Below, one piece after another: positions 23 through 61,687 of a stretch of 64,000 nt of DNA. Every line of letters starts with the position of its first letter. Positions within the stretch are counted from its first letter, which is position 1. This stretch comes from Microgenomates group bacterium (lineage in GTDB: Bacteria > Patescibacteriota > Microgenomatia > Daviesbacterales > UBA10151), in NCBI GenBank assembly GCA_041659805.1, contig JBAZXP010000001.1:128589-192588 (forward strand). Direction: 5' to 3'. The notes beneath the pieces are model-generated. The model saw only the letters and a program-made list of their open reading frames with translations, ran no database searches and was not told the DNA's origin. A program made the translations under genes and the position numbers.

Positions 23-1477
23 ATGCTTTCCGGCGTTTTCGGCGCCTTCCTGGTCACTATGGGTGGTAATTTACATACCATTTATATATTTTTCCAAAGT
101 TATCAATCAGATAATCCGGCTCCTTTCTGGAATTTACCTGCGATGCTAAATTTAAACGGTTACTGGTATCCTAACGCCACCCGATTTATTCCTTTTACAA
201 TCCATGAATTTCCTATTTATTCATTTGTCGTGTCAGACTTACACGGACACGTTTTAGATATACCCTTCGTTCTTCTTTTAATAGCTTTATTAATAGTTGT
301 ATTTTTCCAACAAAAGCTTAATTCGTTATTCTTGCTTCTTATCTCATTATTAATAGCTATTTTCCTGATGACAAATTTTCTTGATGCACCAATTTATTTA
401 TTGATCATTTTCTGTATTCTATTGACCAAAGAACTGAAAATTGAAAGTTTTGTGAAAGTGGCTAAAATATTAGCAATCATCACAGTTGGTGCAATTATTG
501 TATCCCTTCCTTTCTGGTTATCTTTTAAACCGTTCGGTTCAGGAATTGGAGTTGCTTGTCCACCGCAATTTCTGGCTAATATCGGTCAGATCGGTCCGTT
601 AATATTTGACGGCAATCATTGTGCCCATTCCCCTCTTTGGATGCTACTCATTCTTTGGGGCTTTCCGTTATTTATTTTATCGATTTTTCTTGCAACTCAT
701 TTGGATTTTAATTATCTAAAAATAAATAAAAATTTTAAATTTAAAGACTTTAATCCTGTAGATATCCTGGTTTTGACTTTTTCATTAGCAGCTTTTGTTT
801 TAATACTCATTCCTGAATTTTTCTATGTCAAAGATATTTATCCGGCTCATTGGAGGGCTAATACTGTTTTTAAATTCGGCTATCAGGCTTTTATTATTTT
901 GGGGTTAATGTCAGGATATATGATTATCAGGTTGCTACCCATATTTAAAAAATATTTTCCAATCACGATAGTAACAGCGTTTCTGTTTAGTTTAGTTGCA
1001 CTTTATCCTATGTTTGCAATTTATTCATATTTTAGTAATTTAGAAACTTACTCAGGATTAAACGGAACAGATTGGTTAAAATCCAGCTATTCTTCTGATT
1101 ACTCAGCGATAGCATGGATTAATAAAAATATTGAAGGTACTCCCGTAATTTTAGAAGCTCAGGGAGAATCATATTCTGATTTTGCCAGAGTTTCTTCTAA
1201 TACAGGATTACCCACAGTCATTGGTTGGACAGTCCATGAATGGCTTTGGAGAGGATCATATGATGAAGCAGGTAAAAGATCTACTGATGTAACAAATCTT
1301 TATGAAAGCACAGATTTAAACCTTACTAAACAATTAATTCAAAAATATAAAATAGAATATATCTTTTTAGGAACTTTAGAAAGACAAAAATATACAAAAC
1401 TAGACGAACAAAAACTTCAGAAATTAGGGAAAGTAGTCTTCCAGTATGAAACCACTAAAATTTACAAAATTAATTAA
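23..1477 (+). CDS. Polytopic integral membrane protein with C-terminal soluble domain, DUF2298 / Chlor_Arch_YYY-like; N-terminus may lie upstream of the window
   Basis: More than 10 predicted TM helices followed by a conserved C-terminal region (…GTPVILEAQGESYSDFARVSSNTGLPTVIGWTVHEWLWRG…) resembling the DUF2298 family. Confidence 0.45.
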   Translation: MLSGVFGAFLVTMGGNLHTIYIFFQSYQSDNPAPFWNLPAMLNLNGYWYPNATRFIPFTIHEFPIYSFVVSDLHGHVLDIPFVLLLIALLIVVFFQQKLNSLFLLLISLLIAIFLMTNFLDAPIYLLIIFCILLTKELKIESFVKVAKILAIITVGAIIVSLPFWLSFKPFGSGIGVACPPQFLANIGQIGPLIFDGNHCAHSPLWMLLILWGFPLFILSIFLATHLDFNYLKINKNFKFKDFNPVDILVLTFSLAAFVLILIPEFFYVKDIYPAHWRANTVFKFGYQAFIILGLMSGYMIIRLLPIFKKYFPITIVTAFLFSLVALYPMFAIYSYFSNLETYSGLNGTDWLKSSYSSDYSAIAWINKNIEGTPVILEAQGESYSDFARVSSNTGLPTVIGWTVHEWLWRGSYDEAGKRSTDVTNLYESTDLNLTKQLIQKYKIEYIFLGTLERQKYTKLDEQKLQKLGKVVFQYETTKIYKIN

Positions 1478-2007
1478 AGTTTTTTGACTTCATCTATTTC
1501 ATAAATCCAAATTTGTATAGTCCTTTGCCTGACAGGGTTTTTACCAGTTCCATCCCTGCCGTCAAATTCCAGCGCTGCTACCTCCTGATATTTTCCCAAG
1601 ACAGGTTTACCATCCTCAATTGGCACAAATACAGACGGATGCCCGTATAACATTGATCTGATATGACTGGGGGCATTGTAATCTTCGTCAACTTCATTAC
1701 AAAAAGGGTTATCCTGACAGCGATGGGTATATTCTGCAGTTGGTAAATCGAAACCTTCTTTTTTAGCCTGCCAAGCTCTGCTATCTGTAGGAACACAATG
1801 CAAAGCAAAATGTAACATATCTTTTAATAAATTGGGCTCAGAAATTTCCTGAATCACAATGGTGAGTGTGGTGTGTTTGGAATTAACCACCACAAAACCC
1901 TGTTTGACTTTGGATTTTTTAACAGCTTTCTTAACTTCATCCGTTAAATTCCGGAAGGCGGCATAATCAGTCGACGGAAATTCCAGTTCTTTTAAATATG
2001 CTTTCAT
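1474..2007 (-). CDS. YjbQ/UPF0047 family protein (secondary thiamine-phosphate synthase-like)
   Basis: N-terminal …GFVVVNSKHTTLTIVIQE… and C-terminal …NAPSHIRSMLYGHPSVFVPIEDGKPVLGKYQEVAALEFDG… match the YjbQ fold signature. Confidence 0.55.
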   Translation of the reverse strand: MKAYLKELEFPSTDYAAFRNLTDEVKKAVKKSKVKQGFVVVNSKHTTLTIVIQEISEPNLLKDMLHFALHCVPTDSRAWQAKKEGFDLPTAEYTHRCQDNPFCNEVDEDYNAPSHIRSMLYGHPSVFVPIEDGKPVLGKYQEVAALEFDGRDGTGKNPVRQRTIQIWIYEIDEVKKL

Positions 2008-2029
2008 TGGTGCTAATATATATTAGTCT

Positions 2030-2575
2030 ATGGATGTGCCCAATACCCCACGCTCCTTCGAAACAGCTTACCGTAAATGCGCTCTACCTTTAATGAAATT
2101 TTTAATAAAAAAAATGGGTGGTAATCAAATAGCAGCAGAAGAAGTTTTTTCCAATACGGTTTTTGCAGCCTGGAAAGGATTTCATACCTTTGAACATAAA
2201 TCAAAATTTTTTACCTGGATGTGCAGAATTGCCTTAAATAAAGCTGCCGATTATTACAAAGGTCAAATTCACAATGAATCACACTTGATCGCCCCTACCC
2301 TGATTGATTTGGCTAACATTAAGGATAAAAACTTAACACCGGAGGAAAAAGCTTCTTTAGATGAAATCAGAAATTGTGTTCATAATTGTCTAAACCTTTT
2401 ACCCGATGATAAAAGGAATCTTCTTTATCTGAGGTATTGGAAAGATATGACAATTAAAGGAATTGCGGAAACTTTTGATATTTCAGAAAGAGCTGCAGAG
2501 GGAAAAGTTTACCGAGCCAAACTTGCTTTCCGGGAAGTTGTCAGTAAAAAATATCCTGACCTGAGAGATTACTAA
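2030..2575 (+). CDS. RNA polymerase sigma factor, sigma-70/ECF-like (regions 2 and 4)
   Basis: Region 2-like FTWMCRIALNKAADYYK and region 4 HTH LYLRYWKDMTIKGIAETFDISERAAEGKVYRAK. Confidence 0.6.
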   Translation: MDVPNTPRSFETAYRKCALPLMKFLIKKMGGNQIAAEEVFSNTVFAAWKGFHTFEHKSKFFTWMCRIALNKAADYYKGQIHNESHLIAPTLIDLANIKDKNLTPEEKASLDEIRNCVHNCLNLLPDDKRNLLYLRYWKDMTIKGIAETFDISERAAEGKVYRAKLAFREVVSKKYPDLRDY

Positions 2576-3693
2576 TTAATTCTTTTAACTAAAAAGTCAG
2601 CCATTTCTTCTAAGAGCTTAGCTTTTTCAGAATCTTTGGTAATTTGTGGAATAATCTTTTTAGCAATATCAACCAATTCTTCAGCCTTTTTTTGAGAATA
2701 GTCCGGAGCACCAGTATCTTTAAATACTTTTCTAATAGCATCCAATTCTTTATCTCCAATATTTTCCTTACCATAATATTTATCCAGTATTTTATTTTGT
2801 TCTTCTGAAGCTTTTTCCCTGGCATGGATTATCATCAAGGTTAATTTTCCTTCTTCTATATCAGAGGTTACCGGTTTGCCTATTGTTTCTTCTTTCCCAA
2901 AAACTCCTAAAATATCATCCTGAATTTGAAAAGCTATTCCTAAGTTAGTTCCAAACTCCTCAATATCTTTTAGTAACATTTGCTCCGCCCCACCCAAAAT
3001 TGCCCCCATCTGCATCGGTCCTGTAATTGTATATTCAGCTGTTTTAAGTTTAAAAATAGTTAAAACATCTGAAGCGGTTTTTTCTCCTTTAAGATAAGGC
3101 AACTCCACATCCAATACTTCTCCCCAACCGGTGTTGATAGTGGTTCTGGCAAAACAATTTAAAGCAGAATTTTTGATCTTTTCAGGAAAATTATTGTCAG
3201 TTAGAAGTTTCATAGTCAGAAAGAAACCAATATCTCCCAAACAAATAGTTTGAGAAATACCATGATGATCTCCACCCAAAACTTTATACAAAGTGGGCTT
3301 GCCCCGTCTAAGCAAACTTTTATCAATAATGTCATCATGGGCCAAAATTGCAGTTTGAAAAATTTCAACAGCTACAGCAGGTTTTAAAATATCTTTAGTT
3401 TCCTTACCTGATGCTATCTCATAACCTAATTTAACCAAGGCTCCCCTAAGTCTTTTTCCACCAGAACAAGCCTCAATAAATGCTTGATTTAAAGGAATTA
3501 ATTTATTATTTATTACCCCAACTTCACTGCTCCACTCAGTAAAAATGCTATCCATTTCCTGATTTATTTCTTCTGCAGCAATTTGCAAATAATTTTTAAA
3601 ATCCATCTGTGCTAAATTTAACATATAATTTTGATATAATCCATCAATGCAGAAACCATTATTTATTATTAAATTAGGAGGAAGTGTTATCAC
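2572..3693 (-). CDS. Polyprenyl (geranylgeranyl/farnesyl) diphosphate synthase
   Basis: Two Asp-rich motifs LAHDDIIDKS and FQIQDDILGVFG, typical of trans-isoprenyl diphosphate synthases. Confidence 0.8.
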   Translation of the reverse strand: MITLPPNLIINNGFCIDGLYQNYMLNLAQMDFKNYLQIAAEEINQEMDSIFTEWSSEVGVINNKLIPLNQAFIEACSGGKRLRGALVKLGYEIASGKETKDILKPAVAVEIFQTAILAHDDIIDKSLLRRGKPTLYKVLGGDHHGISQTICLGDIGFFLTMKLLTDNNFPEKIKNSALNCFARTTINTGWGEVLDVELPYLKGEKTASDVLTIFKLKTAEYTITGPMQMGAILGGAEQMLLKDIEEFGTNLGIAFQIQDDILGVFGKEETIGKPVTSDIEEGKLTLMIIHAREKASEEQNKILDKYYGKENIGDKELDAIRKVFKDTGAPDYSQKKAEELVDIAKKIIPQITKDSEKAKLLEEMADFLVKRIN

Positions 3694-4450
3694 TTATAAA
3701 GACAGCTCTATTCCCAAAATAAGAACTTCTGTTATCAACCGCTTAGCCAAAGAAATCAAACACATCAAAGATGAAATTAATTGTCGTGTAATTATTGTCC
3801 ATGGAGTCGGCTCTTTCGGCCACCCGGCAGCTAAAAAATATAATTTGAGCAAAGGCATGACAACCAAAGAAGAAAAATACGGTTACTGCTTAATGGAGGC
3901 TCAGGACCTGGAGTTGAATTCAAAAATACTTTCAGCTTTTATAAAATTTAAAATCCCTGCAATCGGTTTTTCTCCTCATTCCTTTATCACAACTTCAAAT
4001 AAAAATTTTTCCGGTTTTGATACCTCAATCATTGAAGGATATTTGCATCAAGACATTGTTCCTGTTTTACACGGAGACGCAGTTTTAGATAAAAAATTAG
4101 GTTGTTCAATTCTTTCAGGGGATATATCTGTTTCTTTTTTGGCAAAAAAATTGAAAGCTGACAAAATTATTTTTGTTTCAGATGTGGATGGAATATTCGA
4201 CATAGACCCCAAAAAAAATCCAAATGCCAAATTAATTCCATTAATTAATAATAAAAACCTAAATGAAGTTTTATTAGGTTTAACTCCGAATAATAAAGAT
4301 GACGTCACAGGAGAAATGAAAGGAAAGGTTTTGGAAATTCAGAAATATCTTTCAAATATTCCAGTTTTAGTAGTTAACGGATATAAACCAAAAACATTAA
4401 TTAAGGCTGTCTCTGGTGAAGCCATCGGAACACAGCTTCTTTTCCGTTAA
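3647..4450 (+). CDS. Isopentenyl phosphate kinase (amino-acid-kinase fold)
   Basis: FIIKLGGSVIT … IIVHGVGSFGHP motifs and ~265 aa length characteristic of IPK. Confidence 0.6.
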   Translation: MQKPLFIIKLGGSVITYKDSSIPKIRTSVINRLAKEIKHIKDEINCRVIIVHGVGSFGHPAAKKYNLSKGMTTKEEKYGYCLMEAQDLELNSKILSAFIKFKIPAIGFSPHSFITTSNKNFSGFDTSIIEGYLHQDIVPVLHGDAVLDKKLGCSILSGDISVSFLAKKLKADKIIFVSDVDGIFDIDPKKNPNAKLIPLINNKNLNEVLLGLTPNNKDDVTGEMKGKVLEIQKYLSNIPVLVVNGYKPKTLIKAVSGEAIGTQLLFR

Positions 4451-6519: not shown

Positions 6520-7743
6520 ATGAAATCTATATATTTAGATTATGCTGCCACTACTCCAGTAGACCTGAGTGTTATCAAAAAAATGCAGCCTTTTTTTGAT
6601 ACTATTTTTGGCAACCCGTCCGAGATTCATAAATGGGGCGCAAAAGCGTCAGAAGGCATAAAAAATGCCCGCTCACAGATCTCACAGGCTTTGAACTGTA
6701 ATCCTACTGAAATAACCTACACCAGCTGTGCTACAGAATCTATTAATTTATCCCACAAAGGTTTGATTGAAGCATTTTCTCACCCTAATCACCCCATTCC
6801 CCCAAATCTCCCCCACATCATAACTTCTAGTATTGAACATAAAGCAGTTTTGGAAACTTGTAAACATCTGGAAAAGTTAGGTTGGGCAAAAGTTACGTAT
6901 TTGCCCGTTGATGAGTATGGCTTGGTTTCTGTTGCAGAAGTTGAAAAAGCTATAACCCCCCAAACCACCCTAATCTCCCTAATGTATGTTAATAATGAAG
7001 TAGGAACTATTCAACCAATTGCTGAAATTGGAAAACTACTTAAAACAAAATACCCCAAAATATATTTTCATACTGATGCCACCCAGGCTCTCCCCTACCT
7101 TGATTGTGATGTTAAGAAATTAAATGTAGATTTATTATCTTTTACAGGACATAAAATTTATGCTCCCAAAGGAATCGGCGGATTATATATAAAAAGCGGT
7201 GTACCGGTAATCAGACAACAGGACGGCGGCTCACAGGAAAATAATTTAAGAGCAGGAACTGAGTCTGTTCCGTTAATTGTAGGGCTGGGACAAGCAGTAG
7301 AGCTGGTAATAAAAAACAGAGCAAAAGAATCCTCTCGCCTTAAAGCATTACAAAAAAATTTGATCTCTCAACTTGTAATAGTTCCAGGGATACAGTTAAC
7401 AGGTCCTAAAACAAATAGAGCCCCTCATATCGCGTCTTTTATAGTTAAGGATGTTGAAGGAGAGGCAATGATGCTGCTTTTATCAGATCTTGGGATTGCA
7501 GTTTCTACTGGTTCTGCCTGTAACAGCCAGATTTTAACATCATCTCATGTACTGGAAGCAATGGGAATTAAAGCAGAAGATTCCCATGGATCACTCCGCC
7601 TTTCTCTGGGAAAGGATACAACAAAACAAGATATTGAATATGCAATTTCCTGTGTTAAAAAAGTCGTTTTAAATTTAAGAAAAATGTCGCCCGTTTTTGA
7701 CGAAGAAGAAAACGCCCTGAGCGAAGTCGAAGGGTTACACTAA
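6520..7743 (+). CDS. iscS: Cysteine desulfurase (IscS/NifS)
   Basis: PLP-binding SFTGHKIYAPKGIGGLYIK and active-site STGSACNS. Confidence 0.85.
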   Translation: MKSIYLDYAATTPVDLSVIKKMQPFFDTIFGNPSEIHKWGAKASEGIKNARSQISQALNCNPTEITYTSCATESINLSHKGLIEAFSHPNHPIPPNLPHIITSSIEHKAVLETCKHLEKLGWAKVTYLPVDEYGLVSVAEVEKAITPQTTLISLMYVNNEVGTIQPIAEIGKLLKTKYPKIYFHTDATQALPYLDCDVKKLNVDLLSFTGHKIYAPKGIGGLYIKSGVPVIRQQDGGSQENNLRAGTESVPLIVGLGQAVELVIKNRAKESSRLKALQKNLISQLVIVPGIQLTGPKTNRAPHIASFIVKDVEGEAMMLLLSDLGIAVSTGSACNSQILTSSHVLEAMGIKAEDSHGSLRLSLGKDTTKQDIEYAISCVKKVVLNLRKMSPVFDEEENALSEVEGLH

Positions 7744-38905: not shown

Positions 38906-39023
38906 TCTCTTAAATGGTGAAGCCGGGAGGACAACACACTTCCGCCTTCGGCGGATCCGAACCTCCAACCAGATGTTACATCTCAATCAAAAATTTGAGT
39001 GGAACTGTAGGACTTGAACAGTG
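38906..39023 (-). other. Structured GC-rich trailer downstream of tRNA-Ile (possible third, diverged copy of the tRNA-trailer element); not a tRNA
   Basis: Contains GGAGG-TTCGGATCCGCCGAAGGCGG…-CCTCCCGGCTTCACCA; the 3' part resembles the tRNA-Ile 3' end (TCCTTCCGGGCC). Confidence 0.3.
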
Positions 39024-39095
39024 TAGGCCCGGAAGGAGTTGAACCCTCGTCACGACTGTATAAGAATCGGGTATTAACCGTTATACGACGGGCCT
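39024..39095 (-). tRNA. tRNA-Ile (anticodon TAT / UAU)
   Basis: AGGCCCG-TC-GTAT-AACGGTTA-ATAC-C-CGATT-CTTATAC-AGTCG…GAGGG-TTCAACT-CCTTC-CGGGCCT-A. Confidence 0.65.
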
Positions 39096-60105: not shown

Positions 60106-60885
60106 TTATACCAATAATAATCCATTCCCATATCTAAGATACTGCCCAGAAGTCATCAGCTCATGAATATAGGCATACCTCTCAAAACTGTTTCTCTGAG
60201 GTTTATCTGATTTTAAATCACAATATTTGATGATAGATGCCAAAAATATTGATAAAGATTTCCATTTAAGTTCATCGTTATCTCCTGTAACAAAATAGTG
60301 ACCCCATTTTTCACCGTTTATGTCTTTTTTTGTAATCATACCTTCTCTTAAACAAAGTATTGTTTCTGGATATTCTGCAAACTGACAAGGTTGTTTTGAC
60401 TTATACCATTTATTTAGTTTAGAGGGCGATAATTTTTCTCCACGAAAAGCAAATATTAACCCTCCTATTACTCCATGCCTTTCTGTATTGGCAATACTAA
60501 TCTTTTTTACTTTCTGAATCAGGCTAGTTGAGTCAATAAAATCTTGTTTAGAAAAGGATGTTTTTATTTTTATAACACAACATACCGCTTCGGGATAAAT
60601 AATTACAAAATCGTCATATCTAGCAAGAATACAACCGCTTTCATTTTCATCTATCACCATTAAATCTATCTGAGGGCTTATATTGTCTTTATCAAAATAA
60701 ATAAAACCAGTTTTAAGTGAAAACCTATTAGGAAGAAAGTTTTTTATTAGATCCCTTAAAACATACTCATGATAACTTCCTTTTTCTGATGGATGATTGT
60801 CTATTAGAGAATTAATTCTATCAAGCTTACTGTCTAATTCTTTTGCAAGACTTTTAAAGTAATGTTCATCCTTAATAAGTGGCAT
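60106..60885 (-). CDS. Hypothetical protein (possible PD-(D/E)xK-like nuclease fold; unverified)
   Basis: ORF only; D…E…K spacing suggestive but not convincing. Confidence 0.3.
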   Translation of the reverse strand: MPLIKDEHYFKSLAKELDSKLDRINSLIDNHPSEKGSYHEYVLRDLIKNFLPNRFSLKTGFIYFDKDNISPQIDLMVIDENESGCILARYDDFVIIYPEAVCCVIKIKTSFSKQDFIDSTSLIQKVKKISIANTERHGVIGGLIFAFRGEKLSPSKLNKWYKSKQPCQFAEYPETILCLREGMITKKDINGEKWGHYFVTGDNDELKWKSLSIFLASIIKYCDLKSDKPQRNSFERYAYIHELMTSGQYLRYGNGLLLV

Positions 60886-60922: not shown

Positions 60923-61257
60923 CTCCTCGACCAGGACTCGAACCTGGAACCTTCTCGTTACAAGTGCCCTTCTGTTACCAAAAGGCTTGGACTATCTCAT
61001 AACCGTGATCCACCAAAGTAGATTTTAGGTCCTAGGTATATAGTCTCTACACGTTTATCCTTCGACTCCGCTCAGGACTATAGTCCTAAACTTCGTTTGG
61101 GAATTTAGCTCGGGATTATCCTTCGACTTCGCTCAGGATCGTTGATCCTTTGATTAATCTTAAGGACTTCCCCGAATTAGCCCAGTTTCCATTCTGATAT
61201 TTCTATCAGAAGCTGCGATTCCCACAGCGAGCCGCTCTACCATTGAGCTATCGAGGA
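60923..61257 (-). tRNA. tRNA-Asn (anticodon GTT) interrupted by a ~263-nt intron in the anticodon loop
   Basis: Exon 1 (61224-61257) TCCTCGATAGCTCAATGGTAGAGCGGCTCGCTGT + exon 2 (60923-60960) TAACGAGAAGGTTCCAGGTTCGAGTCCTGGTCGAGGAG splice to a canonical 72-nt tRNA with loop CTGTTAA, closely resembling E. coli tRNA-Asn. Confidence 0.6.
60961..61223 (-). other. Putative group I intron in tRNA-Asn
   Basis: 5' exon ends in U pairing with internal guide GCAG (P1 CUGU/GCAG with U·G), intron ends in G, R-like GUAGAGACUAUAUACC and S-like GAGAUAGUCC able to form P7 (GACUA/UAGUC); carries an internal 25-nt direct repeat. Confidence 0.5.
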
Positions 61258-61318: not shown

Positions 61319-61687
61319 TTACTCTTTTAGTTTCGACCTTTTTACAATCGTCACTAAGATTTTAATGATTTCTCTTGTCTCTTCTATGAGACTTGCTAAT
61401 TTTACCTCAGATACGAGTCCACTTTCAACAATTATTCTTAACCAGTACTCTGTCTCCTTTGCTTCCTTTAAAGATATTGTTAAGGAACGGATAAATTCTT
61501 TCTTTGAACTACAATTTTGAGCCTCCTCAATATTGGCACCAACGCTGGTTCCGGATCTAACAACCTGACTGGAAATTGCAAAACCTACTGCATTTTTAGG
61601 AAGAGAGGATGCCAATTTAACAATTCTAACTGCAAACTTAAAAGTTCTTTCTCTAATGTCAAAAATTTTTCCTGAATCATTTGGCAT
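61319..61687 (-). CDS. Four-helix-bundle protein (TIGR02436; '23S rRNA intervening-sequence protein' family)
   Basis: Family-typical length and …SLKEAKETEYWLRI… helix; directly upstream of and co-oriented with the intron-containing tRNA. Confidence 0.6.
   Translation of the reverse strand: MPNDSGKIFDIRERTFKFAVRIVKLASSLPKNAVGFAISSQVVRSGTSVGANIEEAQNCSSKKEFIRSLTISLKEAKETEYWLRIIVESGLVSEVKLASLIEETREIIKILVTIVKRSKLKE

Follow-up and report, generated by a model that had tools for sequence, protein, structure and literature searches.

The window, that is, the whole 64-kb stretch of DNA analysed here, carries a tRNA-Asn(GUU) gene at 61257-60923 on the minus strand, and our analysis confirms that a group I intron, inserted between positions 35 and 36 of the anticodon, splits this gene. 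Shown below are the exons, the covarying core of a group I intron, the place of insertion and the homology to a published intron family. The intron belongs to the 35/36 tRNA-Asn class, which is itself already described and experimentally validated. What is new here is one intron in which the long P5 and P6 arms both bear the same motif, together with the wide distribution of this hairpin motif, for which no description was found. On the whole, we regard it as very probable that the locus is a working tRNA-Asn(GUU) gene, with a transcript that carries a self-splicing group I intron between U35 and U36; the splicing of the window's own copy is what we infer from its sequence and from analogy with the published members. 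The host is probably a member of Patescibacteria, judging from sequence similarity: the RpoD of the window and its counterpart in a Patescibacteria MAG, which has a split tRNA-Asn in the same 8-kb locus, share 69% identity. The G+C content of the window, about 35% (33-40%), and the occurrence of its proteins on a metagenomic contig of 837 kb point the same way.

The split gene and its surroundings

The 5' exon (61257-61224, minus strand, TCCTCGATAGCTCAATGGTAGAGCGGCTCGCTGT) has 34 nt, covers tRNA positions 1-35 and ends with U35 in CUGU, and the 3' exon (60960-60923, minus strand, TAACGAGAAGGTTCCAGGTTCGAGTCCTGGTCGAGGAG) has 38 nt and covers positions 36-72 together with the discriminator G73. 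The earlier note had joined these two flanks into a tRNA-Asn(GUU), and ARAGORN on the spliced sequence agrees, giving tRNA-Asn(gtt) with a regular cloverleaf of about 72-73 nt, in which the anticodon GUU and G73 are both present once the exons are joined and a G27·A43 mismatch is the sole defect. CCA is absent from the encoded 3' end. At the junction the 5' exon ends in CUGU, the intron ends in G and the 3' exon begins with UAA, so that the spliced junction reads CUGU-UAACGAG; the insertion between positions 35 and 36 in the earlier note is thus borne out, and the same junction recurs in at least about 50 homologous split tRNA-Asn genes, counted over GTDB genomes and IMG/VR.

Standard tools miss or mislabel this gene. 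By default ARAGORN passes over the split tRNA-Asn and reports only two tRNA-Met and one tRNA-Ile(UAU) in the 64-kb window, and in its intron mode (-i) it calls the locus tRNA-His(gtg) with a 250-nt intron. The genome would consequently appear to lack tRNA-Asn and would score as less complete, a point on annotation and completeness that is also made in published work (PMC13011429).

The call of the intron mode corresponds to a reading in which the boundaries are shifted and the gene is for another tRNA, either tRNA-His(GUG) with a 250-nt intron at 36/37 or tRNA-Thr(UGU) with an intron at 33/34. Tools often move the boundary by two bases, and the Thr(UGU) miscall has been described for this class (PMC13011429). 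The tRNA-His model, however, has a mispaired anticodon stem, a variable region of implausible length and an intron whose last base is not G, and with insertion at 33/34 that last base would be U. No boundary other than 35/36 puts a U at position -1 in a U·G pair with pairs on both sides and also gives a terminal G, a well-formed cloverleaf and, with G73, an acceptor of the Asn type; we therefore take another tRNA to be very improbable here and retain tRNA-Asn with insertion at 35/36.

The tRNA-Ile(UAU) of the default run lies at 39023-39095 on the minus strand; such a tRNA is uncommon in bacteria, where AUA is usually read by a modified CAU tRNA.

Two genes flank the split tRNA on the same strand. 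A DUF6602 gene (60106-60885, minus strand) is located 37 nt downstream, and a gene for a 23S-rRNA-intervening-sequence (four-helix-bundle) protein (61319-61687, minus strand) is located 61 nt upstream. Since a scan for promoters and terminators around the split tRNA gives nothing convincing between these neighbours, the tRNA may be co-transcribed with them.

Core fold and homologous introns

The intron occupies 61223-60961 on the minus strand (263 nt). The earlier note proposed a group I intron and suggested a check with Rfam, and RF00028 (Intron_gpI) indeed matches the intron over the whole length of the model with 61.5 bits (E = 3.6e-13 for the window), above the gathering score of 50 bits. 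In the Rfam alignment P3-P9 are confidently placed, and the P1 and P2 of the model lie upstream of the real helices. The intron overlaps with no ORF of at least 60 aa, and hence with no homing-endonuclease gene as in a mobile intron. In the following, positions in brackets are counted from the first base of the tRNA, the window coordinate being 61258 minus the position, and all elements lie on the minus strand.

P1 (61212-61228) is formed by the exon segment GCUGU at 61228-61224 and the guide GCAGC at 61216-61212 (30-34/42-46). The wobble pair at the splice site is U34·G42 in this count, and P1 can be extended on the intron side by G35-C41 and G36·U40. P2 (61192-61211; 47-66) is an 8-bp hairpin with a GAAA loop, and all 8 of its 8 pairs show compensatory changes among relatives. 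The 5' strand of P3, CUGGG (61181-61185; 73-77), pairs with 61036-61032, the 3' strand CCUAG (222-226), in a pseudoknot with P7. P4, UCGGGG/UCCCGA (61110-61175; 83-88/143-148), encloses the P5 arm. The 5' strand of P7, GACUAU (61040-61045; 213-218), aligns to the Rfam consensus AGACUA and follows the conserved J6/7 segment GUGUAGA, and the 3' strand is AUAGUC (60990-60995; 263-268), placed by the Rfam alignment and by the alignment A2 below. P3 and P7 cross each other, as expected of a group I core. The R-like element GUAGAGACUAUAUACC and the S-like element GAGAUAGUCC of the earlier note coincide with the J6/7-P7 and P7' segments, both aligned by Rfam with high posterior probability. J6/7-P7 reads GUGUAGAGACUA, which presumably matches the Azoarcus intron.

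The two strands of P7 are 46 nt apart, compared with a family median of 63.5 nt, and no P7.1/P7.2-like insert is present between them. P8 (61002-61030; 228-256) contains CCUAAA...CACGG, which we read as a putative variant of the 11-nt GAAA-tetraloop receptor, canonically CCUAAG/UAUGG; many relatives in the alignment A1 have the canonical CCUAAG...UAUGG both in P8 and in P5. P9 (60968-60985; 273-290) is a 7-bp hairpin, CCUUUUG-GUAA-CAGAAGG, supported by the Rfam alignment and A2, and corresponds to the P9-like hairpin that had been noticed before the terminal G. The terminal guanosine itself (omega-G, 60961; 297), with which the earlier note ended the intron, is invariant, as a G precedes UAA in 49/49 sequences of A1. 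P10 amounts to one or two pairs at best, and is weak or absent.

These elements are compared in two alignments, A1 with 49 aligned sequences and A2 with 18 compact introns, the latter with the window's intron as structure reference and with the pairs of the P3/P7 pseudoknot counted by separate brackets. Both share as common blocks the guide GCAGC, J3/4-P4, J6/7-P7, P7' and P9. In A2, 89.2% of the cells hold standard pairs, and 24 of the 37 pairs are compensatory, with both sides changed, which corroborates the group I core across homologous introns. None of 500 shuffles reaches any of the five measures used, and sliding the 3' partners by 1-3 columns lowers pairing to 36-49%. By helix, P3 is paired in 91% of cells with 5/5 pairs compensatory, P4 in 97% with 4/6 compensatory, and P7 in 93%. 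Every pair of P2 and P3 is variable, as are the inner five pairs of P9, which are compensatory, and there is hardly any variation in P1 and P7. In P1, 18/18 sequences of A2 have CUGU/GCAG, a conservation that is partly built in for the genome matches, since CTGT and GCAGC were set in the pattern used for the search; the guide GCAGC and the CUGU/GCAG pairing are found as well in 6/6 viral-contig homologues, retrieved by a pattern free of that requirement. The U·G in P1 with an internal guide, as the earlier note had it, is thus kept in both sets.

The viral-contig homologues come from IMG/VR, which was searched with the 3' exon only, preceded by G and with no guide required, giving 38 loci. Among them, complete tRNA-Asn genes split at 35/36 by introns of 197-211 nt are found in L010, L013/L026, L017 and L030, and in L034 a tRNA-Asn at 823-1461 (plus strand) is split at 35/36 by a 566-nt intron with a 161-aa ORF (907-1392), which matches HNH weakly, with 19.7 bits where the cut-off is 21.4. 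On the opposite strand of L034, a 532-aa ORF (1416-3014, minus strand), which we take by eye to be a serine recombinase, overlaps the 3' end of the tRNA. With a recombinase-like ORF in this place, this 'viral' contig may include a host tRNA used as integration site.

About 30 of the 38 matches (within L002-L039) consist of the 3' part of a tRNA-Asn alone, and no 5' half lies near them. By their sequences, these fragments look like attachment-site copies with the crossover in the anticodon loop. They begin exactly at anticodon position 36, with a G before it. Their number gives some weight to a reading of the window's locus as two halves that are not one gene, the 3' half being a duplicated tRNA fragment from the integration site of a mobile element. 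Such a reading is refuted by the anatomy of the locus and keeps hardly any probability, as the matching 5' half lies exactly 263 nt upstream and a complete ribozyme fills the interval, in which there is neither an integrase nor any other ORF. The window's locus is accordingly treated as one split gene.

In the species genomes of GTDB, a pattern for the 5' side, GGTAGAGC-N6-CTGT-N2-14-GCAGC, matches at least 120 loci, and among the matches listed about 48 are complete tRNA-Asn(GUU) genes with 35/36 introns of 184-431 nt. Many of the matches are in MAGs labelled Patescibacteria (Saccharibacteria, Paceibacterota and others), and other matched MAGs are labelled Acidobacteriota, Elusimicrobia, Omnitrophota, Planctomycetota, Methylomirabilia and Gammaproteobacteria. 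Some of the closest relatives of the window's intron, among the matches listed, sit in MAGs with labels other than Patescibacteria. Taking the MAG labels as given, the occurrence of the 35/36 tRNA-Asn class beyond Patescibacteria may be far wider than was indicated by the survey of complete genomes. Nine loci with 35/36 introns in tRNA-Asn are in MAGs labelled as non-Patescibacteria (L073, L076, L077, L080, L100, L101, L107, L115 and L117), with labels that include the PVC group and Betaproteobacteria as well. The 5'-exon/guide pattern is also matched by L061, labelled Pacearchaeota, and L064, labelled Thermofilales; from its sequence L061 may be a bacterial-type split tRNA on a contig that is possibly mis-binned, and Williams (10.1101/2020.01.27.920355) suspected mis-binning in a similar case.

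A second split tRNA is seen in five Patescibacteria MAGs (L043, L050, L071, L099 and L156), with the 5' half GGGCGTAGCTCAACGGTAGAGCACTCCCCTGT ending in CCCCUGU, the same type of intron and a GCAGC guide after CUGU. It is probably the tRNA-Asp(GUC) 35/36 case of PMC13011429.

With this structure, splicing would proceed as follows. The end of the anticodon loop in the 5' exon, GCUGU, and the guide GCAGC in the first part of the intron would pair as P1, and the 5' splice site would thereby have its U·G wobble. The core, P3-P9, would fold, probably braced by contacts of L2 (GAAA) with P8 and of L9 (GUAA) with P5, and such docking is likely because canonical receptors are present in the P8 and P5 of relatives. 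A free guanosine bound in P7 would then attack after U35, and the terminal G (60961) would take its place in the P7 site while the exons are ligated. The product would be a 72-nt tRNA that still needs the addition of CCA.

The long P5 and P6 arms and their motif

The distance from the 5' end to J6/7 is 175 nt in the window's intron and has a median of 123 nt in the family, and the excess is confined to P5 and P6. The earlier note reported a 25-nt internal direct repeat; the repeat is real, although its length is 23 nt rather than 25, and the two copies, 61055-61077 and 61116-61138, are 22/23 identical and 61 nt apart. In the minimum-free-energy (MFE) folds it is no loose oddity, as its copies are the 3' strands of the extended P5 and P6 arms. 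Copy 1 (61116-61138, minus strand; UCCUGAGCGAAGUCGAAGGAUAA in RNA sense) is predicted to form the 3' strand of the P5 arm and J5/4, and copy 2 (61055-61077, minus strand; UCCUGAGCGGAGUCGAAGGAUAA) the 3' strand of the P6 arm. Next to the copies are the palindromes GGAUCAACGAUCC and GGACUAUAGUCC, just as had been noticed before. The extended P5 arm (61118-61167, minus strand), GUCCUU...AAGGAU (91-96/135-140), has a 38-nt insert that holds the palindrome GGAUCAACGAUCC and repeat copy 1, at a place where the P5 of relatives is short. The extended P6 arm (61053-61109, minus strand; 149-205) has a long stem, GUUUAGGAC/GUCCUGAGC, with a UAUA loop. The 3' strand of each arm terminates in UCCUGAGCG(A/G)AGUCGAAGGAUAA, and both repeats contain the 18-nt motif CCUGAGCGAAGUCGAAGG.

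The motif can also form a hairpin of its own, and the long arms could for this reason slow or disturb folding, with the competing hairpin predicted to be less stable. In P5 the nested arm has -14.5 kcal/mol against -9.0 kcal/mol for the motif's own hairpin, and in P6 the values are -15.6 and -8.3 kcal/mol (MFE). The nested fold preserves the normal geometry of J4/5-J5/4 and J6/7.

This bears on whether the window's intron is a decaying or inactive copy, in which the P5/P6 insertions or other changes disable splicing and another gene supplies tRNA-Asn. Besides the competing hairpin, such decay would fit the fact that, among about 55 introns sampled from the matches listed, only the window's has the motif in both P5 and P6. 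However, the core helices and the conserved joining segments are all intact, and the insertions are confined to the peripheral arm tips, a place at which additions are tolerated by group I introns. The same P6 arm occurs in several relatives (L051, L293, L344, L276 and L309), and ARAGORN finds no second tRNA-Asn gene within the 64-kb window. Intron-bearing and intron-less copies of one tRNA, moreover, rarely coexist (PMC13011429). We thus consider an inactive copy unlikely and hold to a self-splicing intron in a working gene. Most relatives are without these peripheral additions, and therefore the P5 and P6 extensions are not needed for catalysis.

A P6 arm that is homologous, or that ends in the same motif, is present in the tRNA-Asn introns L051, L104, L293 and L344. 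The motif-bearing P6 arm is also present in L276 and L309, which are introns inserted after U33 in tRNAs with a CAU anticodon, and the arm is therefore common to introns of different tRNA genes. The intron of L276 spans about 1170-1530 (minus strand) and that of L309 about 3410-3770 (plus strand). In L284 the motif hairpin is P5 itself, and L093 has a variant of the same. The doubling of the motif, which is peculiar to the window's intron in this sample, suggests that the tip of the P6 arm was duplicated into P5, or that the motif was acquired a second time.

The motif is not restricted to introns and occurs in hundreds of viral and metagenomic contigs that are unrelated. Its core in the intron repeats is the 18-mer CCTGAGCGAAGTCGAAGG, which can also be written as CCUGAGCG(N)AGUCGAAGG or CCUGAGCGNAGUCGAAGG. 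The exact 18-mer is found in 101 IMG/VR loci (L160-L260), and the 21-mer CTGAGCGNAGTCGAAGGATAA in at least 120 metagenome contigs (L262-L381); among the matches listed, only a handful of the metagenome loci are introns. Over 102 distinct instances, the flanks of the motif pair in 97, compared with 64 when the flanks are randomly re-paired, and the flank positions -1/+1 and -2/+2 covary, which shows that the motif is the tip of a hairpin. An inverted relative lies within 150 nt in 30 of the 102 instances. Typical forms are GTCATC-CTGAGCGNAGTCGAAGGAT and CCGTTCGC-CCTGAGCGAAGTCGAAGG-GC.

The window itself has a third copy, CCTGAGCGAAGTCGAAGGGTTA, outside the intron, at 7716-7737 on the plus strand. 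A cysteine-desulfurase-like ORF has this copy at its 3' end, where it encodes the last residues, ..ALSEVEGLH, beyond the Pfam domain of the ORF.

The motif matches no Rfam family at E values up to 10, and our literature search for its sequence found no paper carrying it. By eye it does not fit the consensus requirements of a hammerhead, a k-turn or a T-loop. A link with the gene of the 23S-rRNA-IVS protein upstream of the split tRNA is likewise rejected, as IVP-like ORFs are in 3 of the 221 motif loci listed and none is adjacent. As a tentative idea, which we hold to be less likely than not, the motif might be an undescribed, very widely distributed element, either a hairpin repeat that is mobile or a module of RNA or DNA that is complete in itself and has a conserved partner; such an element would repeatedly have been built into the peripheral arms of tRNA group I introns.

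The published class and comparison with known systems

The interest of the window's intron rests mainly on the lesson for annotation, on the unusual doubled arm and on the unexplained, widespread hairpin motif. With its unusual peripheral arms it is one further case in a class for which self-splicing is already known, and our results suggest that a short hairpin motif, frequent in environmental DNA, appears repeatedly in P5 and P6 arms of tRNA introns.

Repeats in the peripheral arms of tRNA introns have a precedent in the tRNA-Leu(UAA) introns of Nostoc, which have a repeat-bearing P6b arm. As in that arm, a short repeat has accumulated in the periphery of the window's intron with the core untouched. 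The unit here differs in being a specific 18-23-nt motif that is widespread outside introns, and it occurs once each in P5 and P6, unlike a tandem array.

The class to which the intron belongs has been reported in two studies. Williams (bioRxiv 10.1101/2020.01.27.920355) expanded the types of tRNA group I introns to 21, with the 35/36 site numbered as position 4, and, as cited in PMC13011429, listed the class as 'Asn.4Ug'. Nakagawa et al. (bioRxiv 2025; mSystems 2026, PMC13011429) described the class in Patescibacteria, where 95 complete genomes have 15 tRNA-Asn and 3 tRNA-Asp genes with 35/36 introns, and they classed nearly all tRNA introns of Patescibacteria in subgroup IA. HNH genes are present in four of the tRNA-Asn introns. 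Precise self-splicing in vitro was obtained for one tRNA-Asn and one tRNA-Asp intron, the former being a homologue from GCA_016700035.1, and a change of the terminal G to C blocks exon ligation (PMC13011429). The statement of the earlier note that no group I intron is known in tRNA-Asn is hence out of date, because the class has been published by both studies, and with self-splicing in vitro. The exact sequence of the window's intron was not found in two supplementary files of PMC13011429.

Compared with the introns of PMC13011429, the window's intron has the same host tRNA, the same insertion point, the U at -1 and the terminal G; like most members it has no endonuclease gene, and like them it is missed or miscalled by tRNA finders and has a core that is alignable throughout. 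It differs in its long P5 and P6 arms with the duplicated 23-nt segment, and it is without the extra P7-P3' segment seen in over half of the relatives sampled.

The classical bacterial tRNA introns are inserted at 34/35 in cyanobacterial tRNA-Leu(UAA), and at 36/37 in tRNA-Ile(CAU) of Azoarcus and tRNA-Arg(CCU) of Agrobacterium (see also PMC13011429). The window's intron is, like these, small, without ORF and placed inside the loop of the anticodon, with P1 formed from the anticodon loop and stem, and it likewise has GNRA loops on P2 and P9 and receptor-like motifs in P8 and P5, while its host tRNA and its insertion position are both different.
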